This document shows positions 18,578 through 44,222 of a stretch of DNA of 64,000 nt, one piece after another (position 1 is the stretch's first letter; each line of letters opens with the position of its first letter). The notes under the pieces are model-generated. The model worked only from the letters and a program-made list of their open reading frames with translations. It ran no database searches and was not told the origin of the DNA. This DNA is from Escherichia phage ukendt. Both the position numbers and the translations under genes were made by a program. The DNA is taken from the sequence record NC_052661.1. One strand, 5' to 3'.

Positions 18578-18622
18578 CTTGCATAAACTTTGTTTTTGAT
18601 GTATACTAAAAAGGAGATACAA

Positions 18623-19039
18623 GTGTTACTAGATCAATTTACTCTCCTTGATCTAACTGAATACCAAGGTCGTAGACGAGTCTACAAAGAGGCAGTTGAT
18701 TCAGTTATTGCTAACTTAGACAGTAGTGTAGAGTATGAACCATTTACTATTGAAGCAGCAAGCTTACAACCGATATCTGGTAAAACACTGAATGCACTAC
18801 CTGAAGGTTACAGATCTAAGGCTCAATATAGTTTCTGGACTAAAACAGAAATGAAGGGGTTACAACAAGGAACAGAACAGTTATCAGATCAGATATTGAT
18901 AGATGGTAAATGGTATTCTGTTTATTCCCTTAAGGATTGGACCAGAACATCTTTCTTAGTCCATCATCACTGTGTTGCAATATTAGACGATCAAAACAAC
19001 TCCTGGTCTTATGGAACAGAAGGAGGAAACTTTGGCTAA
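18623..19039 (+). CDS. hypothetical neck/tail-completion protein (start refined to GTG 18623)
   Basis: AAGGAG RBS at 18611..18616 followed by GTG 18623, in frame with the track ORF starting 18590. Confidence 0.35.
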   Translation: MLLDQFTLLDLTEYQGRRRVYKEAVDSVIANLDSSVEYEPFTIEAASLQPISGKTLNALPEGYRSKAQYSFWTKTEMKGLQQGTEQLSDQILIDGKWYSVYSLKDWTRTSFLVHHHCVAILDDQNNSWSYGTEGGNFG

Positions 19040-22418: not shown

Positions 22419-24407
22419 TTGTTAGAAATTAACGCCTCCAGAATTAGTAACGTGGTTACGTTTAAGGTGGACAAGAACAGTCTCAAGGAAGCAAAAGATG
22501 CCGTGTTGAGTGTTCAGAAGTTTGCAAATAAAATGCAACCCACTATGAACATGACCAAGTTTAGACAACAAATGAAAGAGATTGAACGTGAACTTAAGAA
22601 AGCTCAAACTCAAAGCCAAAAACCTATGCGAGCACCTACTCCCGCTGGAGCGGGTGCTCCTGTAGGTGGTTCTGGTAGACCTAGAACTCCTAAAACCCCA
22701 CAAGGTAGAGAAGAAGAAAAAGCTCGTAAAGCGGCTGAACGCGAAGCTAAAGCAGCAGCACGTAGGGAAGACTTAGGTAATCTTCGTTTACAGAACTTTA
22801 ACTATCGAGCAAGAGCATTTAGTAAAGCCAGTCCTGGAGCTATGCAAGAAGCTAGAGACGTTATGGGTAAAGCTGTAGAGCAATACAAAAAAGGTGAAAT
22901 AACTCTTCAACGTATGAACCAAGCTCTTGCTCACCAGTTAGATGCTTTACGCAGATCTCATCGTGAAAAGAATGCTGAAATAGAAGATGAGGTTCGCGGT
23001 CGTCGCCGTATTCGTAGAGAGCTAGAAGCAGAAGCTAAAATGCGTATACGTATGCGAAATCGTGAACTTAGGGATATAGAACGAAATCGTAAGCGTGAAT
23101 TGGCACAACAAAAACGTGATCGTGATCGTAGATATGGACAACTAAAAGAAGGTGCAGCAGGTCTTAATCCACGCATGATTGCATCCTCTTTGATTGGTGC
23201 TGGGCTGTTTGCAGGTGGTTCTGTAGTTGGTAACACGTTGATGAATACTAACGAAAGAATTAAACTTGTAAGCCGTGGTGCTGAAAACGTTCAGACAAAC
23301 GCCAACGCTATTTTGGCAATGACAGCTTGGGGTGAACAGAACGGTGTAGACTCTGCAAATATTATTAAATCAATAGATAATATTAAAGACGTTCGTGAAC
23401 GTCTTGGTAATACAGTTTTAGCTGCAAAGTGGAATGAGAAAGAAGGGAAGTGGAAAGGCGGTGATAATGGCATAACTGACATTATGAACTTGTTTGGATG
23501 GAATCCAGAACAGCTTAAACCTTTACAGAACGATCCTTTAGCTTTTATTCAGGCTACTGTTAATGAAGGTGAGCGTCGAGGTATGAACTCTGCTCAAATA
23601 GGGCGACTTCTTGAAAACCTTGGTGATGACCTTATGCACTACCAACGTATGTTTAGTAAAAACGGCGAAGGGTATAATGAAGTATTGAAAATGCTTCAAA
23701 GAACAGGTGCAACATTAACTCAAGAACAAATAGATGCTTCTAAAGAGTTTACTCGTTTTGCTGCAACAGTTCAGCTTGTAGGTCAAGGTATGCAGAACCA
23801 CTTCTTAGAGGGTTTTGTGAAAGCCTTACCTAAAGATGATTCTTGGTTGGATAACGTTAAAGTGCTAGATCAGTTTGCCAAAGATTTAGGTGAAGAACTC
23901 GGTAAGACAACAGTTCAATTAGGAGGTTTTGCTAAAGAATTGGGAGATGGTTTCGGATCTTTTACCAATTGGCTTAAAGAAACATTCCCAGATACATTCG
24001 GAGACAACACAGATCCTAATAAATCTATGGCACAAAAAGCATACGAGGCAACGCAAAGTGGAGACAGCAATCCTGTAGCAGATTGGTTGTACAATTTAAC
24101 AGGTATTGATACACAAGACATTGGTCGTATGTGGAGAGGAGAACAAACAAGGACACGTGCTTTTGGATTTGGTAATCCTCTTGAAGATTTACGTGAATCA
24201 GCCTACACACCTAACGTAAGTTTGGCTCGTAATCAACCTGTTGTTGAGAATACGGTAGCAATACCAAGTGATCTTATCAAAGTTACGATCAGCCCTTCTT
24301 CAGAGTTTGGAAATATTCTTGATGCAAGAATTCAAAATAGCGGAAATAGCATTTTCCAACGTTTGTCTCTTTCAACTCTAAGTGGACAATCTAACACTGG
24401 TGGTTAA
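22419..24407 (+). CDS. tail tape measure protein
   Basis: 662 aa; long Arg/Glu/Ala-rich predicted coiled-coil; sits after the frameshifted chaperone; TTG start with GAGGA RBS. Confidence 0.7.
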   Translation: MLEINASRISNVVTFKVDKNSLKEAKDAVLSVQKFANKMQPTMNMTKFRQQMKEIERELKKAQTQSQKPMRAPTPAGAGAPVGGSGRPRTPKTPQGREEEKARKAAEREAKAAARREDLGNLRLQNFNYRARAFSKASPGAMQEARDVMGKAVEQYKKGEITLQRMNQALAHQLDALRRSHREKNAEIEDEVRGRRRIRRELEAEAKMRIRMRNRELRDIERNRKRELAQQKRDRDRRYGQLKEGAAGLNPRMIASSLIGAGLFAGGSVVGNTLMNTNERIKLVSRGAENVQTNANAILAMTAWGEQNGVDSANIIKSIDNIKDVRERLGNTVLAAKWNEKEGKWKGGDNGITDIMNLFGWNPEQLKPLQNDPLAFIQATVNEGERRGMNSAQIGRLLENLGDDLMHYQRMFSKNGEGYNEVLKMLQRTGATLTQEQIDASKEFTRFAATVQLVGQGMQNHFLEGFVKALPKDDSWLDNVKVLDQFAKDLGEELGKTTVQLGGFAKELGDGFGSFTNWLKETFPDTFGDNTDPNKSMAQKAYEATQSGDSNPVADWLYNLTGIDTQDIGRMWRGEQTRTRAFGFGNPLEDLRESAYTPNVSLARNQPVVENTVAIPSDLIKVTISPSSEFGNILDARIQNSGNSIFQRLSLSTLSGQSNTGG

Positions 24408-24533: not shown

Positions 24534-25235
24534 ATGGCAGCAATGACTCCACAACAGTCGGTGAGAGCCGTCTATAAGGCAGAACAGGAAATCAACTCTA
24601 CCGAGAATAAAAATACCTCGGCATCTACTGTAAAGGGTGATAATGGTTTCTGCATTTTAGCAAGTGTTTATAATAGTTCAAGTGATCAATACATTCAAAA
24701 CTTTAAAGCAATTACTTTCGATTCAGTCCCTGAAATAGGTGTAACTCGTGAGGCAGATGTTACAAGTTTTCCAGTAGAATCAGGATCGGATGTAAGTGAC
24801 CACGTTCAAATAAAAAACAACAGATTTAAACTTTCAGGTATAATTACCGAAACACCAATTCGGCTTATGCGAGATCAATTATACAGTGCAGGTGTAAATG
24901 GTGCAAGGATTTCTCAAGCAATAGAATATCTAGATCAAATATTTGAGTCAAGACAACCAATAGTTCTTTTGACAGAACACAGAACTTTTGAAAATGTTAT
25001 TCTCAAAGGTTATTCGTATGATTATAAATCTGAATTTGCTATGCAATTTGATTTAGAGTTTGAACAAATCCGTCTCGTTTCTAAGGCCACTACTAATGCT
25101 ATTGCTGTAAAAACAGCACCAAATAAATCGACGGGTGGTGATGTGAAAGGTCAAGTTGCTTCGAATGGTCCTAAGTCAGATATTACAGTAAGAACGGCTG
25201 AAGCTACTAATACCCCAACAAACAACGGAGGTTAA
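24534..25235 (+). CDS. hypothetical tail/baseplate protein
   Basis: 233-aa ORF, first gene after the tape measure. Confidence 0.35.
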   Translation: MAAMTPQQSVRAVYKAEQEINSTENKNTSASTVKGDNGFCILASVYNSSSDQYIQNFKAITFDSVPEIGVTREADVTSFPVESGSDVSDHVQIKNNRFKLSGIITETPIRLMRDQLYSAGVNGARISQAIEYLDQIFESRQPIVLLTEHRTFENVILKGYSYDYKSEFAMQFDLEFEQIRLVSKATTNAIAVKTAPNKSTGGDVKGQVASNGPKSDITVRTAEATNTPTNNGG

Positions 25236-25237
25236 TA

Positions 25238-25651
25238 GTGACAACTTATTCTAAAACAACAAGGTCTACAAGTAATACAGGCTACAGTGCAGTTTATCTA
25301 GAGGACCATTCTACTTATTTTGCATGGTACCTGAAAACTGAAGAGTATCCTGATCAAACATATACAGTTACATTGGATGGAGTTGATTATGACATTCGTT
25401 TAAGGTGGAACACTAGGGACGAGTCTTGGCAATGTCAGATTGGATTATCTGGAGATGATCCAAGTATAAGTTTCAAAGTTACAAATGGTTTAGATCTTCT
25501 TAAACCTTATAAATATCTTGAAAGTGTGCCAGATGGTCAATTGTATATAGTAGATACAGTTAAGATTAATGGTCGTCCTGGGTATACAACTACAGGTCGA
25601 GATAAACGTTTTGTATTGGTTTATATTGATAACAAACCTAATCAGGCGTAA
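25238..25651 (+). CDS. hypothetical tail/baseplate protein
   Basis: 137-aa ORF tightly packed in the baseplate block. Confidence 0.35.
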   Translation: MTTYSKTTRSTSNTGYSAVYLEDHSTYFAWYLKTEEYPDQTYTVTLDGVDYDIRLRWNTRDESWQCQIGLSGDDPSISFKVTNGLDLLKPYKYLESVPDGQLYIVDTVKINGRPGYTTTGRDKRFVLVYIDNKPNQA

Positions 25652-25660: not shown

Positions 25661-26671
25661 ATGGCAGAAAGAGAGTATACAAAAGCTCCTGCCCCTAATT
25701 TAAACAGGGCATACAAATTATTAATTGGTTCTGCCACAAACACAATACAGAAGAGAACTAAGAACTCGGCATTTAAATCTACAGTAGATTTGGATACCAA
25801 GTTAGGAACAACAGAAAAATCCTCTTCTAATTTGTATTTGTTGCAAGACCATCAAATAACCTTCAGTATTAAGAAAGATAATAACAAAGATCCTAACCAA
25901 GCAGAGATTGTAGTTTATAACCTTTCGGATGATACTGTTAACTATATAAACCGTGGTATCCGAAATAACTTGGCTGTTGCTTTAGCGGTAGGATACGAAG
26001 GTGAAGAGTTGGTTATGGTCTTCAAAGGAACTATCCAGTGGGTTAGTGATACTTTTGACTCGGTAGACAGGAAAACCACTTTACACTGTTTGGATGGCGG
26101 TATTAACATTGCAGAAGCAAGAACAAGCCGCAGTTATCCAAAAGGAACTAAAATCAAACGTGTTGTGACAGATTTGGTAAAGGATTTAGGAACTACAGAA
26201 GGTAATATACACGTAGATAATGATCAAACCTTATCCTCAGCAACAGCTATGTGTGGAAACACTTCACATTACCTAGAACATATTTGTAAAAGTATTGATC
26301 ACAATGTGTCAATACAAGATGGATCTGTTTATGTCACTCCTCGTTCACAAATGTCTAGTGCACGTAGCGCCTACATTAGCCCTGAAACTGGTCTGATAGG
26401 AAGTCCAGAACCATTCCACAACGATATAAAACCTACTAAAAAAGTTACCAAGTCATCTAAGAAGGCAAAGAAACCTACAGATGGTGTTAAATTCAAATGC
26501 CAAATGAATGGTGCAATATTACCAGAAAAAACAATCTGGTTAAAAAGCCGAGATTATGATGGTCCATTTAAAGTTGTTTCTGTTTCTCACAATGGTGATA
26601 AAGAGGGTAAAGAGTGGGTTACTGAGGTGGAGTGTGTATCCGTGTCTGAAATAATGACTAAGGAGAAATAA
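25661..26671 (+). CDS. baseplate hub-like protein (tentative)
   Basis: 336-aa ORF between tape measure and spike-like gene; position-based call. Confidence 0.35.
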   Translation: MAEREYTKAPAPNLNRAYKLLIGSATNTIQKRTKNSAFKSTVDLDTKLGTTEKSSSNLYLLQDHQITFSIKKDNNKDPNQAEIVVYNLSDDTVNYINRGIRNNLAVALAVGYEGEELVMVFKGTIQWVSDTFDSVDRKTTLHCLDGGINIAEARTSRSYPKGTKIKRVVTDLVKDLGTTEGNIHVDNDQTLSSATAMCGNTSHYLEHICKSIDHNVSIQDGSVYVTPRSQMSSARSAYISPETGLIGSPEPFHNDIKPTKKVTKSSKKAKKPTDGVKFKCQMNGAILPEKTIWLKSRDYDGPFKVVSVSHNGDKEGKEWVTEVECVSVSEIMTKEK

Positions 26672-27405
26672 TGGATGCATTGAATTTTGTCACAGCAATG
26701 CGTGGCTTAATGACAGAACAATTAGCAGAAGTCCATACAGCCTTGCCAGTCCGTGTGACTGGCGTTAATTATGGTGCTAAAACTGTCACTTTAGAATCTA
26801 TTGTTAAAAACACACGATCTAGTGAAGATGAAATAGATTATCCTACTTTTGAAGATGTTCCTTTTATGGTTAATGGTGGGGGGACAGGAAGAATCTCATT
26901 CCCTATTAAAGCTGGTGATTTAGGAACTGTTATATTTTCTGAAAGAGATCCTTCTAATGCACTGCAAACTAGTGGAGAAACCTCTTCATCATCCACTTTT
27001 ATGCAGCCTTGTGGATTATACCCTATTTGTTTTATTCCCAAAATAGCTACAGGAACAGATTCAACAGAAGCTGTAGATTCTGAAAAGGTAGTTATTTCTA
27101 ATAACAAAAACACGTACGCTTCTTTCGACCCTACAGGTAATATTTCAATATGGAATAGTCAAGGGATGAAAATAGATATTACTACCTCTGGTATTACTAT
27201 TACAGATGGCACAGGGACTTTGGATCTAAAAGGTGGTAATTTAACTTTCAAAGGCGGCGTAGCAGATATTAATGGTCTTAAAATAGATCAGAACGGTTTG
27301 ATGACAGATGGTAATGGCATCGGATTCCATACTCACACACACACGGTTCGTAACATTCAGAGCGGTAGCTCAAGTGCCGAGTCCTTAAAACCAACAGGAG
27401 CCTAA
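26671..27405 (+). CDS. baseplate central spike protein (tentative)
   Basis: 244 aa; Gly/Thr-rich repetitive C-terminal half ending in a HTHTH histidine cluster. Confidence 0.45.
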   Translation: MDALNFVTAMRGLMTEQLAEVHTALPVRVTGVNYGAKTVTLESIVKNTRSSEDEIDYPTFEDVPFMVNGGGTGRISFPIKAGDLGTVIFSERDPSNALQTSGETSSSSTFMQPCGLYPICFIPKIATGTDSTEAVDSEKVVISNNKNTYASFDPTGNISIWNSQGMKIDITTSGITITDGTGTLDLKGGNLTFKGGVADINGLKIDQNGLMTDGNGIGFHTHTHTVRNIQSGSSSAESLKPTGA

Positions 27406-27406
27406 C

Positions 27407-28033
27407 ATGGGAATCCCTTTTGACTTAAAGCTTGGACCAAACAACGACCTCATCATGGACGATGGGGATTTGGTCCTCACCACAACCAGAACAGAAATTG
27501 CAGCACAAACTCTTGGGATAACTCTGAACACGTATCGTGGAGAGTGGTTTTTAAATACTAACTTCGGTGTTCCTTACTTACAAGAGATTATTGGTGTTGC
27601 TAGAAAGAAAGATATTGTAGACAGAATATTTTTAGCGGAGATTGCCAAAAACGTTTACATAGATACAATAAACAGTTATAAATCTGCTTATGACATGGAT
27701 CAACGTTATTACTCAATGACAGTTATGGTGACAGTTGGAGCAGATACAGTAACATCCGTATTCAATACTCAACCTTCTGAAGAGTTTATTTACCCTGAAG
27801 CTGGTGAAGACAATGCAGCGATCATTTGTGAAGCTTACAGTATTGTTGAGAATTCGAATAGACTTTATCGCTTTATCAACTTTGTTGGTTTGCCACGTGA
27901 TACCTACTCTACTTGGTGGAATGAATGGTCTACAGAGTCAGCAGGGGAAAGAATCATGGTTAACGAAAAAGGTGATGCATTAGCTACAAACAATAATTTC
28001 GGTATAACAGCTATGACAGGAGTAGAAGAATAA
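27407..28033 (+). CDS. hypothetical baseplate protein
   Basis: 208-aa ORF, 1-nt spacing from the spike-like gene. Confidence 0.3.
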   Translation: MGIPFDLKLGPNNDLIMDDGDLVLTTTRTEIAAQTLGITLNTYRGEWFLNTNFGVPYLQEIIGVARKKDIVDRIFLAEIAKNVYIDTINSYKSAYDMDQRYYSMTVMVTVGADTVTSVFNTQPSEEFIYPEAGEDNAAIICEAYSIVENSNRLYRFINFVGLPRDTYSTWWNEWSTESAGERIMVNEKGDALATNNNFGITAMTGVEE

Positions 28034-28506
28034 TGGCAGATTTAACTACGATCAAAGTTTCTGATCTTACACAAACAACCTCTGTATCTGATACAGATTT
28101 CTTTGTAACAGATCAGGCTGGAATAACAAAGAAGACTTCTTTGAAAGTGCTGTTGAGTGGTGCAGGGGTAACTAGAAACCGTTTAAATGCACGGGGAACA
28201 GTAACTAGCACCTTGGCATTAGATATTAGTTCAGCAGAATATTTTTCGGCAACCTTATCTTCTGCAACGTGCACAATTAGTTTTACTAATATTCCAGTAG
28301 CAACGAATGCAGTTTTAAACTTTACTTTATCTTTGCGTCAAGGAAGTGGCGCAAATAAAGTCGTATGGCCTTCTTCTGTAAAATGGAGTTTTGGTCGTTC
28401 CCCAGTTTTGAGTTATCGTCAAGGTGCAACAGACACTTTTGAATTTATCAGTTATGATAATGGTGCAACTTGGACAGGTAGCTTAGTTTTAGCAGGAGTT
28501 ATTTAA
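28033..28506 (+). CDS. hypothetical baseplate/tail protein
   Basis: 157-aa Ser/Thr-rich ORF; start overlaps upstream stop. Confidence 0.3.
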   Translation: MADLTTIKVSDLTQTTSVSDTDFFVTDQAGITKKTSLKVLLSGAGVTRNRLNARGTVTSTLALDISSAEYFSATLSSATCTISFTNIPVATNAVLNFTLSLRQGSGANKVVWPSSVKWSFGRSPVLSYRQGATDTFEFISYDNGATWTGSLVLAGVI

Positions 28507-31390: not shown

Positions 31391-33544
31391 ATGAAACAAG
31401 CTATATTTACTGTCACGCGAGACAAGAGAGTAAATGCGAGTTCATTTAACTACACGACTGTTGACGGAACAGCAGTCGCTGGTAGAGATTATATTGCAAA
31501 ATCGGGAACACTTGTGTTCCCTGATGATGCTGATTCTGCTACCATTGTGGTTGAAGTATTTGAACGACCAAAGAACTCAATAGATCTTAACTTCTCCCTC
31601 CAAGTTTCAGGGATTAGTCAAAATAATATGATGGTTGAAACAATCATCAATTGTATTATAACTACTATCCAAGAAAATACCACTCCAATAACTTGGACTA
31701 CAAAAGACGTTAAAATGTTCTCTCCTATGTATTGGACAATAGATTCTCAAGCAACGGAAAGTTGTTCTATTGTATCTCATGGAGACTCTTTTACTGCAAG
31801 ATTTGTAAACAGAACAACAGCAGGTTTGGCAGGGGTTATCTGGAGCACAGTTGACAAATATGACCATAAAGGTGTTGGGTATTTACCCCACACAGATTTA
31901 AGTTCAGAGAAACTTTGGTTTAAAATGGAAATTAGTCAAAACATGCCAGGTTTTAAAGAAGAACCTTTGGTGCCGACTTTGACTGTAACTCTCCTGGATA
32001 AAAGTGTTCATTATGTCAGTTTAGGATTCTACGCTTCAGATATTTCAGAAGATGGTAAAACAGCTACAATCAAGTTAGATTTTGGTAATATCTTTTCTGG
32101 CCCTAATAATGATATTCCTTTGGATATGAGTGCTGTAGATAATATTTTCTTCTCTTTGATTACAGCAAGGTATGAAGAAATAGAAGAGATTGTACCTATT
32201 GCCAGTCTAGAGGCTTGGTTTACTTTCACTCTTCTTGAACCTACTTCTGGTTACAGTATGATGAAAGTCAGCAACCTTGTCCAGCCTGAACATGATATTC
32301 GCATGTGCACATCTTATGATGATATGTATAACCTGACTCCAGAGAGAGTTATTTATAATACATATGCACTAGGTTATCGTGGAATGATTAACCATTATAA
32401 CGGAATGTCTCACTATTATGAGTTCTCATGGAACGGAACATCTTGGGCTTTAAATAGATCTGTTTTCCTGAATCCGGCTACAGAAGCTTGGCTTAACAGT
32501 TTCCATTCTATAGCTAATGAAAATGGCTACACAATAATGAACTCTTTGAGTTTTGAGTTGATGAGCACAGTTTGTCCTGTTGAATGGGTCCAGCATGATT
32601 GGAACGATGCTCTTGCAGCAACAGGGTATAAGCCTCCTAGTTACGTGTTGTCTCCAACTATTGACGAAGGCATGGAATATTTGCAAAATGTTATTAACAA
32701 AATAGCATCTATTTCTCAAGCTAATAACATTCCAGTCGTCATTCAAATTGGTGAACCTTGGTGGTGGTATAATACAGCAAGTAAAATGCCTTGTATATAT
32801 GATTACACTACCAAACTGGCATTCAATACAGAAACAGGCTTATTTGCACAAGATGCAGGAACAATAGATAATTATAAAACAGGAACGCCATTTGACGAAT
32901 ACTATGCATTTCTGTCTCGTAAACTAGGGTTAAGAGTTACAAAGTTTGCAACAGACACCAGAGCAACTTATCCTGGAGCTAAAGTAACATTGCTTCCGTT
33001 CTTACCATCAATTATCGGCAACGGTTTGATGGAGAAAGTTAACTTTCCGTCTGATTACTACATTCCTGAAGCTTTTGATTTTTATTGTTCAGAATGTTAC
33101 GACTGGCTTCTGGAAGGTAAAATGATGAAAGCATTCGATGCAATTACCATACCACATGAAAAATTAGGTTTTGAATATTCTGATATTCACTATCTTTCGG
33201 GTTTTGTTCCAGATGCTACTCTTGCACCTTTGTATGGCTTCGATCCTGAATCAAACTACCGCACGTATCTTTGGAAAATGATTATAGGTAATATAGTGTT
33301 GAACGCCAATAAGTTTGACGGACTTACACAATATATATGGGCCTATCCTCAAATAATGCATGATTCTATCACGGTAGTTAATTCTCAATCCCAAGTTTTC
33401 TATATGGGTAACGTGCCTTTGAACGTCTATTTACAGGATATCACTCTTAAACAGGCAAATGTTGAGATTGCCACCATAAGTGGAATTACATTAGCCACTA
33501 AATCTGGAGAAGATTTAGTAACAACACAAAAATTTTATATATAG
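31391..33544 (+). CDS. tail fibre/spike protein
   Basis: 717-aa ORF co-linear with neighbouring spike genes; no catalytic motif recognised. Confidence 0.4.
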   Translation: MKQAIFTVTRDKRVNASSFNYTTVDGTAVAGRDYIAKSGTLVFPDDADSATIVVEVFERPKNSIDLNFSLQVSGISQNNMMVETIINCIITTIQENTTPITWTTKDVKMFSPMYWTIDSQATESCSIVSHGDSFTARFVNRTTAGLAGVIWSTVDKYDHKGVGYLPHTDLSSEKLWFKMEISQNMPGFKEEPLVPTLTVTLLDKSVHYVSLGFYASDISEDGKTATIKLDFGNIFSGPNNDIPLDMSAVDNIFFSLITARYEEIEEIVPIASLEAWFTFTLLEPTSGYSMMKVSNLVQPEHDIRMCTSYDDMYNLTPERVIYNTYALGYRGMINHYNGMSHYYEFSWNGTSWALNRSVFLNPATEAWLNSFHSIANENGYTIMNSLSFELMSTVCPVEWVQHDWNDALAATGYKPPSYVLSPTIDEGMEYLQNVINKIASISQANNIPVVIQIGEPWWWYNTASKMPCIYDYTTKLAFNTETGLFAQDAGTIDNYKTGTPFDEYYAFLSRKLGLRVTKFATDTRATYPGAKVTLLPFLPSIIGNGLMEKVNFPSDYYIPEAFDFYCSECYDWLLEGKMMKAFDAITIPHEKLGFEYSDIHYLSGFVPDATLAPLYGFDPESNYRTYLWKMIIGNIVLNANKFDGLTQYIWAYPQIMHDSITVVNSQSQVFYMGNVPLNVYLQDITLKQANVEIATISGITLATKSGEDLVTTQKFYI

Positions 33545-33552
33545 GAGTAAAA

Positions 33553-35967
33553 ATGTCAACTACAATTACTAATTTACCCGAAACATCAAAAGTTAATGGT
33601 TCAGATTACCTGGTTTTAGATCAACCTGATAAAACTGTTAAAAGCACAGTTTCCAACTTTCTTGCTGACACTGGGGTGGTTTTAGCCACCCAGTTGAAAG
33701 ATACAGATGGAGCAGATTTAATACAATCCTCAAATGGTAATACTGTTCAGGAAGAGTTGAATAACAATCTTCTTAATGATCGTGAACAGTGGCGTCGTAG
33801 TCTTGCTGAAGCAGGGCTAACACTGGTAAGCGGTAGCTTTGAGGAAGGCGCTACAGTAAATAGTAAAACGGATGCTGTTTGGCACATTTCTGTTGGACAG
33901 TGTTATACATGGCATGGCGCTTTCCCTAAAACTGTTCCTGCTGACTCAACCCCTACATCAACCGGTGGTGTTGGTCCTAGTGCGTGGGTTAGTGTTGGTG
34001 ATGCGAGTTTGCGGTCAATAGCTCAATATAGAGCCAATAACATCGAAGCGTTAAAATCATTGCCGCTTGCAGTTGGAGACATTGTTAATATTGCTGGATA
34101 TTATGATGTTTTTGATGGAGCGCAGCATTACCGAGTGATTAGTGATGCAGATGATGGAACAGGAGTTCAGCTCAATAATGGTTTATGGGCAAATATTATC
34201 ATTAATGGCGATGCTTGTGTTGATTGGTTCGGGGCTAAAGGTGACGGTGTAGCTGATGATTGGTGGGCTATCAATAAAGCCATTAATGCTTCAATTTCTA
34301 CCGCTTATCAGGGCGGTTGGTGGGAAACGTCAAGTAGAAACCCTAAATTTAAGGTGCATCTCAGTCGCCGCTCTTATCGTATTACTCGGCAAATACTACT
34401 ACCTCCTTACATAGAGTTTTATGGTATGGGTTCGCGCTGGTATTTTTCTGGTGATAATAATTCTCGCTTAATCCCTGATTTTGATAATCCGTTGCAATTC
34501 GCTGTGAAATCTGCTAGCTATATTGTTGAAACCGGTGAACTAGCACCTGAGGGGTGGTATTCTGGGGTGGTTTGGGTTGACCCAAAAAAACTAACGACTT
34601 GTCATGGTATTAAAACTTATGGATATAGCATCGAACCAACAAAACAAATTTTAGGCGGTATAAGACTGATAGCGAGCCCAATTTCTCATGTATATGATAT
34701 ATTCATAACAAATGTTGATTTTGGAGTTTTACTGAATTGTTCATGGGTGAGTAAGGTTGACGTTAAAACTCATCATAATAAATGTGGGGTTATGTCTAGT
34801 CATGATGGTAATAACACTCACGTGGATGGTTATTTTACAGGGACAGAAATCAAACCGCTTGATGGTAATCCTTACCTCAACCCAATAGAGTCTTTAGACC
34901 CTACAACAGGGCTCCAAGACAAATCTATATCTGACCCAGACAGTAAAATAGGTGTGATTTTTTATTGGTCACAGGGGTCAACAAGTACGAATATGACGTG
35001 TGAGGGTAACACTATTTCGTTGGCTGTGGCTAAGGGTGGTGCTGATGTAAGGTGTTTATACTCAGAACGTAATTCAGATTGTACATTTACTGGGTACAGT
35101 TCACTAGTTACAATTGGTGAAATAACTGGCATTGGTGACGGTGGAACTTTTGAGCTTGGTGTAAATAATACTATTTCGTTAGACAAAGACACTCAGTATG
35201 GTGTCGCTAAACGATTTAAGTACGTGAGCGAGTGGGGTAATAAGATGTTTATGCCCTCTAGCTGGAAAGAATACACCAAAGGTTGTTTAGTTAAAGGATT
35301 TGATTATAGCGAAATTTTTGTAGATGCGATAAATGGAGATGACACTAATGTTGGTTCCAGTCTTTACCCTGTGAAAACTTTGGAGAGAGCTCTAACGCTT
35401 GTGAATTCAGTGTATACTACATCTAACTTGCTAAGCTCAGTGCCGAGGGATAGAGTAATAAAGTTAGTAGGCTCAGCAACATACTATCCAGACGGACAGC
35501 ATAGGTTCATAGGTGGATCGTTGACAATTACAAAAGCTGATAACTCACGACCGATTGTTAATTTATCAAAACCAATCCGAATTAACGACACATCTCTAGT
35601 ATTTGAGGAAGTAAATTTAGTGCGACCAACAGATGACCACGGGAATGGTGAGAATGGCGCAATTTTCCTTGAGGATGGGAGTAATGAAGTCAGATTGAAA
35701 AACTGTGATCTAAGTCTACAAAAATTCAGCTTCTTATATCCTACTTGGGGTTTTGCTGGAATATGTACCTTGGTGTTACACGGGGTTAGTGTTACTGGTG
35801 ATTCAACAACAAGAATGATACAAACAGCTGATGGATATCATGATTTGCACTTGTTTAATGTAATTAGCTACGAGACAACTTACACTGGAGGAATAGAGTC
35901 AAGACTAGATAAAGGCTATGATATACCAGCAGATAGACGTGGTCATATATTGGGTGTATCAATATAA
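33553..35967 (+). CDS. tailspike with pectate-lyase-like beta-helix domain
   Basis: 804 aa; WFGAKGDGVADDWWAINKAINAS (GDG-x-DD signature of pectate-lyase-type beta-helices); shares the FPK..VPA..STP..TGG..AW motif with two other spike genes. Confidence 0.6.
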   Translation: MSTTITNLPETSKVNGSDYLVLDQPDKTVKSTVSNFLADTGVVLATQLKDTDGADLIQSSNGNTVQEELNNNLLNDREQWRRSLAEAGLTLVSGSFEEGATVNSKTDAVWHISVGQCYTWHGAFPKTVPADSTPTSTGGVGPSAWVSVGDASLRSIAQYRANNIEALKSLPLAVGDIVNIAGYYDVFDGAQHYRVISDADDGTGVQLNNGLWANIIINGDACVDWFGAKGDGVADDWWAINKAINASISTAYQGGWWETSSRNPKFKVHLSRRSYRITRQILLPPYIEFYGMGSRWYFSGDNNSRLIPDFDNPLQFAVKSASYIVETGELAPEGWYSGVVWVDPKKLTTCHGIKTYGYSIEPTKQILGGIRLIASPISHVYDIFITNVDFGVLLNCSWVSKVDVKTHHNKCGVMSSHDGNNTHVDGYFTGTEIKPLDGNPYLNPIESLDPTTGLQDKSISDPDSKIGVIFYWSQGSTSTNMTCEGNTISLAVAKGGADVRCLYSERNSDCTFTGYSSLVTIGEITGIGDGGTFELGVNNTISLDKDTQYGVAKRFKYVSEWGNKMFMPSSWKEYTKGCLVKGFDYSEIFVDAINGDDTNVGSSLYPVKTLERALTLVNSVYTTSNLLSSVPRDRVIKLVGSATYYPDGQHRFIGGSLTITKADNSRPIVNLSKPIRINDTSLVFEEVNLVRPTDDHGNGENGAIFLEDGSNEVRLKNCDLSLQKFSFLYPTWGFAGICTLVLHGVSVTGDSTTRMIQTADGYHDLHLFNVISYETTYTGGIESRLDKGYDIPADRRGHILGVSI

Positions 35968-35989
35968 ATAATTGATATTATGCTTCATG

Positions 35990-36022
35990 GTAATTGTGGG
36001 TGAATCACTCACAATTACTTTT
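35990..36022 (+). terminator. long near-perfect inverted repeat after the tailspike gene, followed by TTTT
   Basis: GTAATTGTGGGTGA / TCACTCACAATTAC arms (one mismatch), then TTTTAG. Confidence 0.5.
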
Positions 36023-36547
36023 AGGTACTACAGTTGATAATTCAGATTGATACATTGGATTAGCAGGTGCGTGTACTACTAGCACTTGAATTTTGATACA
36101 TAAATCCGGCACCCTCCCTCACCCTCAACGCGCCCAATTGCCTCCATAGGAGGCTCATTACCTCCTTGTGGGCTTTGTTGTAGGCATGATTGCTGTTCAA
36201 TATTTTAGGCACTAACCAGCCGACATTGTTGATGGAAATATAAACGTAAACAACAATGCATATAACTCAGTTGTTGTGGCACTAAATTCTTACGTAGGTT
36301 ATAGGTTGTTGTAAAACAAAACCCCGACTCGGCGGAGAATTATAAAGGTACTATCATGGACTTCATTACGATTCAAACAAACTATGTCCTGCAAGCGCAT
36401 GTCATCGCCATGTGATAAAATGATGAAAACATATCGTAGCAGGGTTAATCTTGTCTTTAGTTACTATCGTACTAACTCAAAGTGTTGTCACTACCACTGC
36501 AAGCCCCCTCCAAAGAGGGGCTTACTTAGAAAAACAAAGAGGTTTAT

Positions 36548-36856
36548 ATGAACGAATTATTCTCACAAGGTGGTAAGGGTTCAACAGGAATCCTAACCAA
36601 CAAGCAAGCAGTAGCCCGTCACTTTGGGGTTAAACAATCTGAGGTTGTTTACTTCTCAGTAGGTGCTCTGCTTACAGGTTACAAAGTCATCTATGACAAA
36701 GTGTCACAGAGGGCTTACTCATTACCTGCTGATATTGCCCCAGGTACTACTGCCATTAGTCTTAGTGCTGCTGTACTTGTGCATTCAGCGGGTTCTGTAG
36801 ACCTTGGGGAATTAGCTATATCTCGTGATTTAAAAAGTAATGAGAACGCACTATGA
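36548..36856 (+). CDS. orphan tail-spike module (homologous to an internal segment of the 41160..44213 spike)
   Basis: ARHFGVKQSEVVYFSVGALLTGYKVIYD...GSVDLGELAISR aligns with ARKYGLLDDEVAYATAGQSLTGIKALYD...GSVDLSALAVER in the 1017-aa spike; preceded by 580 bp without ORFs. Confidence 0.35.
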   Translation: MNELFSQGGKGSTGILTNKQAVARHFGVKQSEVVYFSVGALLTGYKVIYDKVSQRAYSLPADIAPGTTAISLSAAVLVHSAGSVDLGELAISRDLKSNENAL

Positions 36857-37095
36857 GAAAATTTTTAATAGGTATGTTCTGTACATATCCTGATAATAAA
36901 GTCAGTTCTACTAAAGTCTGGAACGCTGTAGGCATGTCGGTTATGACAGGCATGTTTATCTTTTTAGGAATAGAAAAAGAAATTCCTGAATGGATGGGTT
37001 GGGCTTTTGTTTTCATGATAACTCCTTCTCGCCTCATGAAAAATCTTATTGATTTACGCTGGGGCAGATCACAATCTACCAAAGAGGATGACTAA
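36853..37095 (+). CDS. small two-TM membrane protein (holin-like or exclusion-type)
   Basis: 80 aa; hydrophobic segments VWNAVGMSVMTGMFIFLGI and WMGWAFVFMITPSRL; charged C-terminus. Confidence 0.35.
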   Translation: MRKFLIGMFCTYPDNKVSSTKVWNAVGMSVMTGMFIFLGIEKEIPEWMGWAFVFMITPSRLMKNLIDLRWGRSQSTKEDD

Positions 37096-38582
37096 TGGAC
37101 GAATATGGTTTGACAGATGCGGGATTTGTAATCCCGACTTTTGACGATGTTTTAAACAACTACATGACAGCAGTAAAAAACACATTTGGTGCAGATGCAG
37201 CCACTTCGGAAGATACTGTGATCGGACAACTGTTTAGAATAATTGCATACACAGATTACACATTGTGGGAAGGTATGCAAGGGGTTTATAATACTCAAAC
37301 ACTGGATGGTGCAGAAGGTATTTATCTTGACGAAATCTTTTCTAAACGTGGTTTCTATCGAGCAGGGGCAGCAGCAAGTACAGGTTATGCCTATGTTAAG
37401 AGTAATAACAAAGCAGCTTGGACTTATGAGTTAGGCACAGATATTTACTTCAACTCTGATAGTGATATGAACTACTATGTTAGCACACCAACTATGTTGA
37501 ATGCTAAGATTGCAGCTTATCAAATTTCTCGTGCTAATGCAACTGCTACAGGTGTTCCAAATATTACTTTTTATGCACAAAGTGCGATAGATGGAGGACT
37601 AAACAGTAAAACACTTGCACCTGGTTCTTCTACATTTATAACCGATCTTGAAACTTTTATCAAGGCGAATTTAACAGAAGCTGATCGTAGTCTTGTATTT
37701 TCTGATTCAGGTAACTTATCAATTGGTTTTACTTCTTTAACCAGTGATACTCCAGTGGGGCTGGTAACTCCTATTAAATTTTATGCTAGTGTTCCGGTTG
37801 GAACCAAGTGGAGTGAGATTCCGGTAGTTGCAGCAGAGAAAGGATACAATCCTGTTGGTGTGGAGTCTATTACAGGGATATCTTCTACCTTTACAGGTTA
37901 TCTTGACAGTGGTAACTTTTATTCATTTTCTCCTGGTCGGGATGTTGAGACAGACGCAGAATTCCGCTCTCGTTTCAATGACAACGTTGATGAAGCTAAC
38001 GCAGGGACACGAGCAGCTATTGTGAAAGCTCTGTTACTTACAGATGGTGTTACTAAGGTGAAGATTTATGATAACCCTACATTACATGATCAAGAACACG
38101 CTCCAGCTATGACTTTCCAGACTATAGTTTATGGTGGCAGTGCAGAAGAAATTGCAAATGTTATCTATAAAACCAAACCAATCAACACTTTGACACACGG
38201 AACAACAAACATAACTGTTACAACGGAAGACGGAGGACAAGAAATTATTCGTTTTTCTCCTGGTGCTTCTGCTACATATTCCGTAAAACTTGTTTATCAA
38301 ACTGTCAACGGAACAACTTTAAGTGGAACAGAAAAACAAAACATTGTAGAAGCTTTACAAAACCTGCAAGCTTACTTTGAATTAGGTTCTTCAGTAACGA
38401 ACGATCAAATCAAAGGTGTTATTTATGCAGCACTTGCTTTTGGACGCTTGACTTCTCTTCGTGTTTATGTTAAACTTAATACTGAGGATGACAGTAAATA
38501 TACAGAGAATAATATAGTTCCTGCTTATAATGTTGTCCCTTCTTTTGACCTTGATAACATTTCTTACGAGTATGGAGTGTAA
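37095..38582 (+). CDS. baseplate wedge protein (J-like)
   Basis: 495 aa; position immediately upstream of a fibre gene and its assembly chaperone, matching the wedge-fibre-chaperone order of contractile-tail phages. Confidence 0.5.
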   Translation: MDEYGLTDAGFVIPTFDDVLNNYMTAVKNTFGADAATSEDTVIGQLFRIIAYTDYTLWEGMQGVYNTQTLDGAEGIYLDEIFSKRGFYRAGAAASTGYAYVKSNNKAAWTYELGTDIYFNSDSDMNYYVSTPTMLNAKIAAYQISRANATATGVPNITFYAQSAIDGGLNSKTLAPGSSTFITDLETFIKANLTEADRSLVFSDSGNLSIGFTSLTSDTPVGLVTPIKFYASVPVGTKWSEIPVVAAEKGYNPVGVESITGISSTFTGYLDSGNFYSFSPGRDVETDAEFRSRFNDNVDEANAGTRAAIVKALLLTDGVTKVKIYDNPTLHDQEHAPAMTFQTIVYGGSAEEIANVIYKTKPINTLTHGTTNITVTTEDGGQEIIRFSPGASATYSVKLVYQTVNGTTLSGTEKQNIVEALQNLQAYFELGSSVTNDQIKGVIYAALAFGRLTSLRVYVKLNTEDDSKYTENNIVPAYNVVPSFDLDNISYEYGV

Positions 38583-38584
38583 AA

Positions 38585-39214
38585 ATGGCAGTGAGTGTTG
38601 ACCATGTAACAACTTGGGCCAGTATCAATGAAGACGTTAAAAACCTTCTGATTGAAGATTTTAAATCTTCTCCTAACATTGTCAAGCTCCTCTACATCGT
38701 ATCCAGTGAAAAGCAAAAGATAGATCAGGCAATGATCTATCTTGCTAAACACCGCTTGATCTCCACAGCCACAGGCAAATACCTAGATATTTTAGGAGAA
38801 GAAATGGGGATTGAACGTAATGGCTCTGATGATGAAGAGTATAGAACAATATTAAAAATCAGGGCTTACCGCGTAGCCTCATCGGGGACTCGTGGTGACA
38901 TAATTGATATCTTCGCCCGTTTCACAGGGACAGAGCGTGAAACGCTTAATACTTATGTAGGTTTGAATAAAACCTTTGACGTGTTTTTCTACAACCTGTG
39001 TCTTCAATCTGATCAAGCTTTAGAGCAGTTACTAAGTGTTTTCCCTATTATTAGTAGCTACCGTCTTGGAGCAAAAGCAGGATCAGCTTTTGGTTTTAGT
39101 TCTTATTATGCTACCAAACCGCCTCATGGTATTGGTGGTTTAGGTTCCCTGTACATGGAATCTACTGGGGATGAAACAGGACGCATGTGTACGCTTCTCA
39201 AGCAAATAGATTAA
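38585..39214 (+). CDS. baseplate/tail-fibre-attachment protein (tentative)
   Basis: 209-aa ORF between the wedge gene and the fibre gene. Confidence 0.35.
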   Translation: MAVSVDHVTTWASINEDVKNLLIEDFKSSPNIVKLLYIVSSEKQKIDQAMIYLAKHRLISTATGKYLDILGEEMGIERNGSDDEEYRTILKIRAYRVASSGTRGDIIDIFARFTGTERETLNTYVGLNKTFDVFFYNLCLQSDQALEQLLSVFPIISSYRLGAKAGSAFGFSSYYATKPPHGIGGLGSLYMESTGDETGRMCTLLKQID

Positions 39215-39223
39215 GGAGTTTAA

Positions 39224-40255
39224 ATGGCGAAGCCAATATATTATCCTGACTGGGCTACACAAACTGTAACGCTCCCAGGAACTTTAAACACAAACAAAAT
39301 TAGACCTAAAGAAACTATCCGCACAGTCGGTATGGACTATGGTCAGATCATGACTTGCGAAGAAATGAACTGGATTCTTAATAATATCGGTTTGTGGATT
39401 CGTTATTTGGTTGATGATTTTATTCCTACTTTGCCTGATACTTACTTGCCTTTAGTGGGAACTAAGATTACAATGGCTGGTGATGCTACTGGTGAGGCTA
39501 CTTGGAATGGTAATAAAGAAGTTATTTTATCTATACAAGTTCAAGATAACAGCCATAATCACTTATCGGCAAACATTACAGACGCTACTAGTTCAATAGT
39601 AAAACCAAATGTATTGGTAAAACGTGATGCAGGTGGTGCTATTTACGGTGGTGATATTTATGTTAATGGCACTTCCACAACAGATCCTGCAACCCTGTTC
39701 TTCAAAAACTTTGCAGGACAAACAAATGGTGAGATTTCTGCCGAGTATCAAACCGGAGGCCAGCTTTACATCTATCGTAGAAATCCTAGCACAGGTGGCG
39801 TTGCGGCTGGCGTTCGTTTATATGATGCTGGTTATGTTCTAATTGACAATCCAAGATCGAATAGTGGACAAGATACTTCAAACGGAAACGCTTTGGTCCG
39901 CTTAGATTATTTGAACTCTCGTTTAAGCTCTCTTCAAAATACATTACAAACAAACATTAACAGTGTTCAAAATAATTTGAATAATGTTAATAGCAATTTA
40001 AATTCTCGTATTGATAATTTGCAAAACAGCTTACAAAGTCAGATAAACTCGCTTCAAAGTCAAGTGAATGCACGTGTAACGGCAGTTCGTATTAATGGAC
40101 GTATTCAGTTAGGTGTATCAGAATCCCCTTACTATGCTGGTCACGTTATGACTGGTTGGGCTTTCGGTGATAAGAAAGAACTTCGTGGTGCTTCTTATTG
40201 GTCTGGTCCATTGCAGTACTATGTAAATGGTAGATGGGTAACAGTAAGCTACTAA
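39224..40255 (+). CDS. tail fibre protein
   Basis: 343 aa; Asn/Gln/Ser/Leu heptad-like repeats (LQNSLQSQINSLQSQVNARV) typical of trimeric fibre shafts; followed by an assembly chaperone. Confidence 0.5.
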   Translation: MAKPIYYPDWATQTVTLPGTLNTNKIRPKETIRTVGMDYGQIMTCEEMNWILNNIGLWIRYLVDDFIPTLPDTYLPLVGTKITMAGDATGEATWNGNKEVILSIQVQDNSHNHLSANITDATSSIVKPNVLVKRDAGGAIYGGDIYVNGTSTTDPATLFFKNFAGQTNGEISAEYQTGGQLYIYRRNPSTGGVAAGVRLYDAGYVLIDNPRSNSGQDTSNGNALVRLDYLNSRLSSLQNTLQTNINSVQNNLNNVNSNLNSRIDNLQNSLQSQINSLQSQVNARVTAVRINGRIQLGVSESPYYAGHVMTGWAFGDKKELRGASYWSGPLQYYVNGRWVTVSY

Positions 40256-40270
40256 GTAGGAGAATAAATA

Positions 40271-40810
40271 ATGAATATTGTTTACGATGGTTTTGAACTA
40301 TATACTCCAGAACCTAATGAAGAGACGCTCTTTTTAATTGGTTTAGGGGTAGGATTTTTAAGAGATTCCTCTGGCAGGGATTGGTATGATTTATCGAAAG
40401 AGTTAGATGCTAAGTATCCTGATGCATATTTTGTTAGTTTAAATACTGATAACTTAGTCTTAGGTGTAGGGGAAGATGCAGTAGGATTATTCCCCCACAA
40501 TATGCGTGTTGTTGTTACAGATAACGTTCCAAAAGGTATGGCTGAATACCCAAGACAATGGAGATATAATGGAACAACTTTTGAAAAACATAACACTTGG
40601 ACGCAAGAAGATGTGGATACTACACTAGAGACAGAATTGACGTGGGCTGGAAACCAAATAGGTGCTTTGACAGATTTGCAAGAGTTACAAGGTTTGTCAG
40701 AGGAACAAGAAAAATGGTTAAAAGCTGTTAAGTTATATCGAGCATCTTTAGTTTTGTTAGATCTGAAAGACTTGAACAACATTCAATGGCCCGATAGACC
40801 TACTCAGTAA
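40271..40810 (+). CDS. tail fibre assembly chaperone
   Basis: 179 aa; C-terminal LYRASLVLLDLKDLNNIQWPDRP resembles the conserved end of fibre-assembly proteins; sits right after a fibre gene. Confidence 0.6.
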   Translation: MNIVYDGFELYTPEPNEETLFLIGLGVGFLRDSSGRDWYDLSKELDAKYPDAYFVSLNTDNLVLGVGEDAVGLFPHNMRVVVTDNVPKGMAEYPRQWRYNGTTFEKHNTWTQEDVDTTLETELTWAGNQIGALTDLQELQGLSEEQEKWLKAVKLYRASLVLLDLKDLNNIQWPDRPTQ

Positions 40811-40820
40811 GGGATACAGT

Positions 40821-41156
40821 ATGGAATTTCAAGAAGCATGGGGACTTGCCAAGGATGCAATCATCCCTTTAATCGGAGTCATCTGGTTCTTTTTCAAACA
40901 AAAAATGGATAAATTCGGCTCTGATCTTGAGGAAATGGAGGAGAAAAGTCGAGAGCTAGAGAAGAAGTTGGTCTTTGTTGAATCAACTTATGCAACTAAA
41001 GCCGAACTTACCCAGATGCTAAATCAAATTAACTCTACATTAATGGCAAATAATAACACTCTTGAGCAAAAAATTGAAAAGATTATGGACCTCAAGAATG
41101 CGACTATTCAAATGATGCTAGATGACATAGTTAAACGTACACAGAATAAGGGGTAA
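40821..41156 (+). CDS. small membrane-anchored coiled-coil protein
   Basis: 111 aa; N-terminal hydrophobic segment AIIPLIGVIWFFF then a charged coiled-coil. Confidence 0.3.
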   Translation: MEFQEAWGLAKDAIIPLIGVIWFFFKQKMDKFGSDLEEMEEKSRELEKKLVFVESTYATKAELTQMLNQINSTLMANNNTLEQKIEKIMDLKNATIQMMLDDIVKRTQNKG

Positions 41157-41159
41157 TTA

Positions 41160-44100
41160 ATGGCAACATTCCCAACATATCCAGCAACGTCTCTTGAACA
41201 GGGCGTAGATCTGGTTATTTTCTCGTCTAACCAACTCCATGATGTTATTAATGGAAGTGCTACAGAGAGTATTGAAACAGAATCAGGGTTGATACCAACC
41301 CTGAGAAAAGCCCTTGTTGACAACTTTTTCTTTAAAAGCCCATTAGATTGGGCGCAAGGCACAAACGAAACAGTTTTTAACCAACTTCGTTATTTCCAGA
41401 ATGGAGTATTGAGCGGTTATTACTACGCCCCTAACGCTACATTGGTTAACCCAATCCCTATGCAAGGGACTCCAGTAGGAGATAACAACTGGGTATTGTG
41501 GGGACTGAAAACAGAACAATTGGCAACAGAAGTCACCCCTTGGGTATATTCTGGTGCAACTGGTTATGAAACAGTAATCAGTCCTCCCTACATCTTTGAT
41601 AGTGCTATTGTTACGATCAATGGTGTTATTCAGGTTCTGGGAGAAGCTTTCCGCATAGAAGATAGTAAGATCATCTTATCTGAACCTTTGGGACACGATC
41701 CTGCGACAGGACTGCCAAACAAGCTTTTTGCTTATATTGGTAAAATCGTAGCTTCAGCAGATACAGATCCTAACCTAGAGAATCGTCTTGTTAGTTTAGA
41801 AACAAAAACGGAAGAACTAACAGAAAGCATGGATAAAGTCCCTCTGCAAACTATTGCTCGTAAATATGGTTTGTTAGATGATGAGGTAGCTTATGCTACA
41901 GCGGGTCAATCATTAACAGGGATTAAAGCTCTGTATGATCCAGTAGCACAATCTTCCTACACATTGCCTCCTAACATTACAGGGACGTTAACATCTTTGT
42001 CTGTTTCTGGAGTAATGACTTATTCTGGTGGTTCTGTAGATCTTTCTGCACTAGCTGTTGAACGTGGACAATTTGTTCATTTACCTACAAGCTTTGGTAA
42101 TAACGTAACCTTGACAGCTAAAAACCAGACGATTGGACGTGGTGCTGGTCGATATCGTTGGGCTGGAAGTTTACCAAAAAGTATTTTGGCCTCCGATACA
42201 TTGGAGACAAGCGGTGGATTAGGTCCAAATGCATGGGTTCTGACCAATACAGAAGGACTGTTAACCCCTCGTGGTGGAACATACAACGATTTATTCGATG
42301 TTGTCTACTTGTCAGAATTTGCTAACAACACAACAACATATACCACACCAGAAGCAGCTTTCCAAGCGGCACTGTTAGCAGCAAAAGCTTCGAAAAGCAA
42401 GATTCTCGATGCTTACGGTTGCGATATGACTTTCACGACAAGCTCTTTTGATATTCAAGGTATCACTTTGCGTGGGGGTGTGTTCCGTGGTCAACGCGAC
42501 TATCGTGTGCAAAATGCTACAGTAGAAGGCACAACTTTCCGTAACTCTCGTGTTATGTATTGGGGTGGTGCTGTGCGCATGTTCGATTGTTTGTGGGACG
42601 GTGCTCCTCGCGCAGGTCAAGTTGGTAGCTTGGTATTCCAAGGCAACCCAATATCAGGTACTTTTGAAATTGATAATTGTACTTTTAAAAACGGGTTGTA
42701 TGGCATCCTTCAACAAGGAACAGGGGAACCAGTAACACGCGGTGTCTTCCGTAACCTTACCTTCATGGACATGCAAGGTGATGCAATAGAACTGAACGTC
42801 ATCAATAAACATTATGATGATGGTTGTGTGATTGAGAATATTTACCTGTCTAATATCGATGGGACTAACGCTCCTATTCCTCTGTCCAACTGGGGTATCG
42901 GTATTGGTGTAGCTGGTAAAGGACCATATGGTTACGGAATTCCTGATGATCAATATTGCAAGAATATTACAATTCGTAACGTTTTTGCAAAACGTTGTCG
43001 TCAGATTGTCCACGTAGAAGTTGGTCGTAATATTTCTATCGAAAACATTCATGGCGATCCAGATCAAACTGTATCTGTTGGAACAGGTTTGGCAACTGGC
43101 GCAGTTGTAATGTATGGAAGTAAAGATTTTACGATTGATGGTGTTTATGGAGAGCCTAAAACAGACGGTAGCACACTTGCAAGTAATATCCGTATGATTT
43201 ATTTGGAGTGGGGAACTAACGCAGTTCTGGACGAAGAGGGTAATCCGGTAGTTCCGGCACAGGGTAGACCTTCAAACCCATGCTTTAACTATTCTGTTCG
43301 TAACATTCACACCAAAACTGGGCGGGTTTTTGCAGGAGTTTCCGCTGGGCCAGGTTATGAAAACAGAGTCAGCTTTGAGAATATCCGTTGTGCTGCGTTG
43401 CAGTTGTTCGGTGTAGCTTCTTGGCTTTCAATGTCTAACATCACCTGTAATATCTTTGATTGTGTTGGTCAACCTGAATCTGGTCCAGGGACATTTTATG
43501 ATGGATTCTTCCGTAGAGAAAAATCTGTTCTTGAGATGGTTAACGTAAACTGTTACCCAGATGGCAAGACGATGGTTACTGGTCGTCCACAGTGGAGCCG
43601 TTGCCGTTACTCGGATATTCATCGTGTCAACTGTAATGTTGAAGCTAATATGTATACCAATATCGCAGGTGGTATTGGAGCTATTGTAGGGACAACTGGC
43701 AAAGTTTATTACTTAGAGCCTAACCCTAGCCGAAACATTGATGGGATGCATTTCCCAACAGGGAAGGAGTTTGACAAAGGGGATATGATAGTCAAAGCGG
43801 ATAATACGTTCTTCCTTGTAACAACAAGCGGGGCATACATTCCAGATATCCCAGCTTTCGGTATTCGAGCTACACAAGCAGGAGATACCTTCCTGACACA
43901 GAACTTGACTCCTAATGGGACAGCAACAAACGCTTCTTGGTTGTATCACTATCCTCTGTCAGCAGGAACACGTATCCGTATTCCTGGTGCTGGTGTAGGT
44001 GGAGCAGATTTGGACACAGTTATTACTCGTGCACCTTATCAAGATAATGATACGTGGACTAACCCAGTTAAAATAGACATTGCAGATCCAATTGTAACGC

Positions 44101-44213
44101 CTACGAGTGCTGGAGTTAGAATCAAAACCATACCTAACGATTCTAGTAATGTTTCTGTAGGTAATACTGCGGTTATTCGCCCAACACCAGTGGTAGATGT
44201 GCCAACAACCTAA
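41160..44213 (+). CDS. tailspike with parallel beta-helix domain
   Basis: 1017 aa; repetitive beta-helix-like segments (NCTFKNGLYGIL, NITIRNVFAKRC, NISIENIHGD); shares N-proximal modules with two other spike genes. Confidence 0.6.
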   Translation: MATFPTYPATSLEQGVDLVIFSSNQLHDVINGSATESIETESGLIPTLRKALVDNFFFKSPLDWAQGTNETVFNQLRYFQNGVLSGYYYAPNATLVNPIPMQGTPVGDNNWVLWGLKTEQLATEVTPWVYSGATGYETVISPPYIFDSAIVTINGVIQVLGEAFRIEDSKIILSEPLGHDPATGLPNKLFAYIGKIVASADTDPNLENRLVSLETKTEELTESMDKVPLQTIARKYGLLDDEVAYATAGQSLTGIKALYDPVAQSSYTLPPNITGTLTSLSVSGVMTYSGGSVDLSALAVERGQFVHLPTSFGNNVTLTAKNQTIGRGAGRYRWAGSLPKSILASDTLETSGGLGPNAWVLTNTEGLLTPRGGTYNDLFDVVYLSEFANNTTTYTTPEAAFQAALLAAKASKSKILDAYGCDMTFTTSSFDIQGITLRGGVFRGQRDYRVQNATVEGTTFRNSRVMYWGGAVRMFDCLWDGAPRAGQVGSLVFQGNPISGTFEIDNCTFKNGLYGILQQGTGEPVTRGVFRNLTFMDMQGDAIELNVINKHYDDGCVIENIYLSNIDGTNAPIPLSNWGIGIGVAGKGPYGYGIPDDQYCKNITIRNVFAKRCRQIVHVEVGRNISIENIHGDPDQTVSVGTGLATGAVVMYGSKDFTIDGVYGEPKTDGSTLASNIRMIYLEWGTNAVLDEEGNPVVPAQGRPSNPCFNYSVRNIHTKTGRVFAGVSAGPGYENRVSFENIRCAALQLFGVASWLSMSNITCNIFDCVGQPESGPGTFYDGFFRREKSVLEMVNVNCYPDGKTMVTGRPQWSRCRYSDIHRVNCNVEANMYTNIAGGIGAIVGTTGKVYYLEPNPSRNIDGMHFPTGKEFDKGDMIVKADNTFFLVTTSGAYIPDIPAFGIRATQAGDTFLTQNLTPNGTATNASWLYHYPLSAGTRIRIPGAGVGGADLDTVITRAPYQDNDTWTNPVKIDIADPIVTPTSAGVRIKTIPNDSSNVSVGNTAVIRPTPVVDVPTT

Positions 44214-44222
44214 TGGAAATAG

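Follow-up and report, generated by a model that had tools for sequence, protein, structure and literature searches.

The question raised by this locus of Escherichia phage ukendt (NC_052661.1) is whether a His-Thr-His-Thr-His stretch near the C-terminus of a 244-residue protein identifies the central spike of a contractile tail, and which of the histidines would hold a metal ion at the spike apex. The window, that is, the whole stretch of DNA that was analysed, is 64,000 nucleotides long. The original prediction placed the histidine cluster at 27328-27342, and both the reading frame and the translation agree: the codons CAT ACT CAC ACA CAC on the plus strand, in frame with the ATG at 26671, encode H220-T221-H222-T223-H224. 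The surroundings of the motif, GIGFHTHTHTVRN, are identical in the translation of the 244-residue open reading frame and in the earlier quotation. The prediction described the cluster as the C-terminal tip of the protein. This description is correct for the apex region but not for the very end of the polypeptide, since the 20 residues T225-A244 come after the motif.

The 244-residue protein belongs to the phi92-type family of central spikes and, more broadly, to the P2 gpV / R-pyocin class of apex-domain spikes. It contains two Pfam domains that score above the curated gathering thresholds of their families (Table 1), and the profile of the beta-helical domain is covered in full (positions 1-75 of 75). 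The spike of phage phi92 is the protein around which both of these Pfam families are built. A phmmer search against the PDB aligned residues 1-243 with residues 1-244 of the phi92 central spike chain (3PQI, 3PQH, and 21VQ; E 5e-117). The two proteins share 72.5% sequence identity, and H220, H222, and H224 pair with H221, H223, and H225 of phi92, so that the HTHTH motif recurs there letter for letter. A profile of the apex only (residues 196-244, built from 23 sequences) matches residues 197-245 of the phi92 spike, up to the last residue of the chain.

Table 1 Features of the spike locus and its surroundings, with positions in the window
Feature	Position	Strand	Basis or remark
Tape measure protein	22419..24407	+	Annotated in phAPEC8 at syntenic position
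Tube initiator, phi92 gp135 orthologue, Dit-like	24534..25235	+	21VQ chain N, E 2e-104; PF21821
Baseplate plug, phi92 gp136 orthologue	25238..25651	+	21VQ chain E, E 4e-69; PF22479
Baseplate hub, phi92 gp137 orthologue, carries the spike	25661..26671	+	21VQ chain M, E 3e-190; PF22759; phrog_196 'baseplate hub'
Central baseplate spike gene, 244 aa, phi92 central spike orthologue	26671..27405	+	PDB match, RefSeq annotation
N-terminal OB-fold domain, residues 25-106	26743..26988	+	PF18352, 42.3 bits vs cut-off 26.1
Intertwined beta-helical trimerisation domain, residues 140-216	27088..27318	+	PF21930, 109.4 bits vs cut-off 27
C-terminal apex region with putative HxH cage, approximately residues 217-244, N-terminal boundary inferred	27319..27402	+	Apex-profile match to phi92
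H220, first His of HTHTH, variable (H/N/D/A), probably not a cage ligand	27328..27330	+	Motif variants in homologues
H222-T223-H224, conserved HxH	27334..27342	+	Predicted two of the six His ligands of axial Fe (3 chains x 2 His)
Sheath initiator, phi92 gp139 orthologue	27407..28033	+	21VQ chain L, E 9e-101

The AlphaFold2 model of the monomer has a mean pLDDT of 77.8. Values of about 90 were obtained over residues 140-210 of the beta-helix, which is formed of short regular strands, and the confidence for the apex is modest (pLDDT 58-71 for residues 221-244). The best Foldseek match of the model is the phi92 spike 3PQI (E 3e-22), and next in rank come the spikes of PhiTE, SN, E217, Pa193, Bas63, R2 pyocin, Pam3, P2 (gpV), and Mu. 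The R2-pyocin spike 4S37 and the P2 spike 3QR8 were recovered with E-values of approximately 3e-6 and 8e-4, respectively, and the link to P2 gpV is by fold only. In the sequence search with the apex-only profile, neither P2 gpV nor the pyocin spike was recovered. Its weak, sub-threshold matches were to gp021 of Bas63, which is part of the puncture apparatus (E 1.8), and to a chain named 'tail terminator gp51' (E 0.12). Both of these place a histidine pair on H222 and H224, with the sequence HTH in Bas63 and HDH in the other chain. A spike of the T4 gp5 or VgrG type capped by a PAAR protein was considered as another candidate and rejected: the HxH motif is present, the 24 tail-module open reading frames scanned with Pfam contain no PAAR domain and no lysozyme match, and the fold matches to VgrG structures are weak (E 2e-2 or worse).

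The spike gene is flanked by a hub gene and a sheath initiator gene, both orthologous to those of phi92. Identity to phAPEC8 and related phages (Phapecoctavirus, Stephanstirmvirinae) is 99.1-99.6% across the region 25661-28506. In the RefSeq record of phAPEC8, the corresponding gene, gp100, is annotated as 'baseplate spike' and is positioned downstream of the genes for the tail sheath, tube, chaperone, and tape measure. phAPEC8 is classified in the subfamily Stephanstirmvirinae, of which phi92 (Justusliebigvirus) is a member as well. The predicted assignment of the protein as a spike is thus borne out by the two phi92-type Pfam domains, the full-length match to phi92, the fold match, and the gene neighbours. 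The prediction also depended on the protein being part of the baseplate, and the phi92 orthologue has been observed there, as a trimer on the hub, by in-situ cryo-EM (PMC13450770).

The annotation of this gene varies among resources. PHROGs v4 holds no family that matches the spike protein at E <= 0.001, whereas Pfam has two, and this gap would leave the gene 'hypothetical' in a PHROG-based annotation. Related phages carry the gene as 'hypothetical' in many of their GenBank records, too. Two phage records, MW175890.1 ('Dompiswa phage TSP7_1', from a pigeon cloacal swab) and MG065650.1 ('Campylobacter phage B15'), are 97-99.6% identical to the phapecoctavirus-type sequence of this E. coli phage, and their host labels look doubtful.

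Ten tRNA genes (Met, Arg, Ser, Asn, Thr, Gly, Gln, Pro, Ile, and Met) form a cluster at 6805-8725 (+), upstream of the structural module. The segment 31391-33544 (+) encodes a 717-residue protein with a Calx-beta domain and the N-terminal and TIM-barrel domains of 'non-contractile tail sheath protein' (PF23845, E 6e-79). These 'non-contractile' domains are found despite the contractile tail of the phage, and the region is labelled as a 'colanic acid degradation' protein in records of related phages. The receptor-binding gene cluster at 33553-49017 (+) is a mosaic. The best record covers only 84% of the region 31391-49017, whereas the baseplate core 25661-28506 is matched over its full length at 99.6% identity. 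An 804-residue tailspike with a Tail_spike_N and a pectate-lyase-like domain occupies the place of the 921-residue putative endosialidase of phAPEC8. The other fibres of the cluster include a 1017-residue protein, a 674-residue protein with collagen repeats, and an 890-residue protein with RCC1-like and Big_2 domains.

The published basis for a metal site comes from the spikes of P2 and phi92. In P2 gpV, an OB-fold and an intertwined triple beta-helix are completed by a conical apex domain. The apex buries an Fe in octahedral coordination, and the six histidine ligands, H197 and H199 of each chain, belong to three HxH motifs related by symmetry (bioRxiv 10.1101/2023.02.25.529910). At the apex of the phi92 spike trimer, density of an Fe held by 'three HxH double-histidine motifs' was resolved in situ, in agreement with the crystal structure (PMC13450770, 2026). 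It has been proposed that spikes with a C-terminal HxH do without a separate tip protein, and that those that lack the HxH carry a tip of the PAAR type; tips other than PAAR also exist (PMC12407873). The metal site anticipated for the 244-residue protein is therefore supported by orthology, since the Fe is caged by three HxH motifs in the apexes of both phi92 and P2, and phi92 has the same HTHTH. The geometry of the trimer, the identity of the metal as Fe, and the location in the baseplate are carried over from the 72.5% identical phi92 orthologue and from the P2 gpV structures, and by this analogy we infer that the 244-residue spike binds Fe in the manner of the phi92 and P2 spikes.

The preferred reading, with high confidence, is that the product of the open reading frame is the trimeric central spike of a contractile-tailed, phAPEC8-like E. 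coli phage, and that H222 and H224 contribute to a cage of six histidines around Fe in its apex. The N-terminal OB-fold of the spike would dock on the hub, with the intertwined triple beta-helix next and a small cone-shaped apex domain last. Each chain of the trimer would turn its H222 and H224 towards the threefold axis, and six imidazoles would surround a single buried Fe in octahedral geometry as a 'histidine cage'. The cage may keep the apex folded, narrow, and rigid, so that on contraction of the sheath the spike would act as a mechanical point that is pushed through the outer membrane. H220 would stand beside the cage as a neighbour that varies among lineages, and a spike with such an apex domain would need no separate PAAR tip protein.

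Forty-two homologues, with identities ranging from 98% down to 44%, were gathered and aligned. H222 and H224 are invariant in the alignment of 43 homologues, which extends down to 44% identity, and T223 is at least 90% conserved, amid flanking residues that vary. Position 220 is occupied by histidine in 24 of the 43 sequences, by asparagine in ten, by aspartate in eight, and by alanine in one. The pattern of histidine conservation in the 244-residue spike is thereby established, as are its sequence, domain content, orthology, and synteny. The P2 ligands H197 and H199 are the second and third histidines of an HTHKH run. Because H222 and H224 are invariant, H220 is variable, and the P2 ligands are H197 and H199, the cage is most likely formed by H222-x-H224, with two histidines per chain rather than all three; conservation and the sequence register with P2 are the basis of this assignment. 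H220 is probably a lineage-variable neighbour and not a ligand of the cage. With H222 and H224 as the cage residues, mutational and metal-binding work is therefore best aimed at these two positions. The restriction of the invariant cage residues to H222 and H224, and the differences in H220 among lineages, are a useful refinement of the motif.

It is improbable that all three histidines bind metal, with HxHxH as the unit and the three imidazoles of H220 forming a second axial layer that holds a second ion or a water network above the Fe. A beta-strand presents its residues i, i+2, and i+4 on one side, so H220 probably faces the axis as well; position 220 is nearly always polar and capable of acting as a ligand, and the full HTHTH is common to phi92 and to this spike. 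However, H220 is not conserved in the manner of the invariant H222 and H224, and three additional histidines alone would not fill a usual coordination sphere. A single Fe with six ligands from three HxH motifs is described in the published accounts (bioRxiv 10.1101/2023.02.25.529910, PMC13450770, PMC12407873). Even less likely is the more specific proposal that H220 gives the phAPEC8/phi92 lineage an additional site on the axis, immediately above the Fe cage, which holds a second ion or serves as a layer responsive to pH or redox state that tunes the stability of the apex or its release in the periplasm. If true, such a site would set the phAPEC8/phi92 subgroup mechanistically apart from plain HxH spikes.

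The codons of HTHT, CAC ACA CAC ACA, form a (CA)5 dinucleotide run at 27334-27343 (+), which is one of only two CA-type runs of four or more units in the 64-kb window, the second lying at 4971-4978. The HTHTH could thus be a chance or low-complexity product of the repeat with no specific role, and this explanation is given almost no credence. The spike protein contains only four histidines among its 244 residues, three of them inside the motif, and HxHxH arose in 83 of 200,000 shuffles that preserved the composition (approximately 4e-4). The twin motif of phi92 is part of a solved Fe-binding apex, and H222 and H224 persist down to 44% identity among varied flanks. Conservation and the shuffle statistics rule out a chance origin from the (CA)5 run, because the motif is conserved at the level of the protein, and of these arguments conservation carries the most weight.

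Among the 33 open reading frames of the structural region that were checked, only two proteins besides the spike contain HxH. The first is a 149-residue protein (18590..19039) with an HHH run at residues 125-127. The second is a 343-residue fibre-like protein (39224-40255 (+)), in which the motif belongs to the sequence SHNHLS (residues 111-113). SHNHLS is a candidate for a fibre-type HxH iron site. The gene of the fibre-like protein is followed by that of a tail-fibre assembly chaperone of the lambda gpK type (40271..40810).

The importance of the cage for infection has been studied in P2. [quoted passage not shown] Since the loss of the cage only approximately halves the plating efficiency of P2, His-to-Ala substitutions in this phage are, by analogy, likely to have a mild laboratory phenotype and not an all-or-none effect. 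For piercing, the metal site would likewise matter less than in the classical model, because the apex and cage of P2 are dispensable for infection in the laboratory.

These P2 results also bear on the tentative suggestion that the cage is mainly a device for folding and register, which aligns the chains and keeps the tip narrow, and that it is not required for penetration as such, so that its loss barely affects infection. We regard this as possible but rather unlikely. Apart from the near-normal plating of the P2 mutants, it is favoured by the occurrence of the same HxH cage along tail fibres, where nothing is pierced (bioRxiv 10.1101/2023.02.25.529910, PMC12407873). However, the HxH is conserved like a catalytic site across unrelated spikes (bioRxiv 10.1101/2023.02.25.529910), and its invariance in the 43 homologues points to a function that is selected in natural hosts. 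Furthermore, a folding device would differ from the His6-Fe cage in how much the site matters and not in its nature, and the two explanations largely overlap.

The His6-Fe cage at the apex of a central spike offers nothing beyond published knowledge: the feature is known, and the gene is already named 'baseplate spike' in RefSeq. The motif is a textbook diagnostic of an apex-domain, iron-loaded central spike, with little import past the correct annotation. It identifies the gene correctly and predicts a phage that has no separate PAAR tip protein.

The spike of phage ukendt can be compared with several known systems. The fibres of T4 (gp37) and of R-pyocins have the same intermolecular HxH cage of six histidines and Fe on the axis of a trimer (bioRxiv 10.1101/2023.02.25.529910, PMC12407873). 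However, their sites are distributed along receptor-binding fibres, away from any piercing tip, and in a different fold context. PAAR tips, such as T4 gp5.4 and the T6SS PAAR proteins, which cap the flat-ended T4 gp5 and VgrG, are likewise small, pointed, metal-stabilised cones at the end that attacks the membrane (PMC12407873). PAAR proteins are, however, separate monomers with tetrahedral His3Cys coordination, whereas the tip of the 244-residue protein would be fused to the spike, trimeric, and organized around an octahedral His6 site.

P2 gpV (3QR7 and 3QR8) and the R2-pyocin spike PA0616 (4S37) share the OB-fold, the triple beta-helix, the apex, and the Fe cage of three HxH motifs, although their sequence identity to the 244-residue spike is just 11-14% and their domains belong to other Pfam families. 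The phi92 central spike, known from crystal structures (3PQI and 3PQH) and from in-situ cryo-EM (21VQ), differs in details. Relative to it, the spike of phage ukendt lacks one residue in the beta-helix, has threonine directly after the cage (HTHTHT) where phi92 has proline (HTHTHP), and has diverged in the last 20 C-terminal residues. The similarities of the two spikes are as follows: their lengths are 244 and 245 residues, they align from end to end, both contain PF18352 and PF21930 and have HTHTH at the equivalent position, and their genes occupy the same place in the order tube initiator, plug, hub, spike, and sheath initiator.
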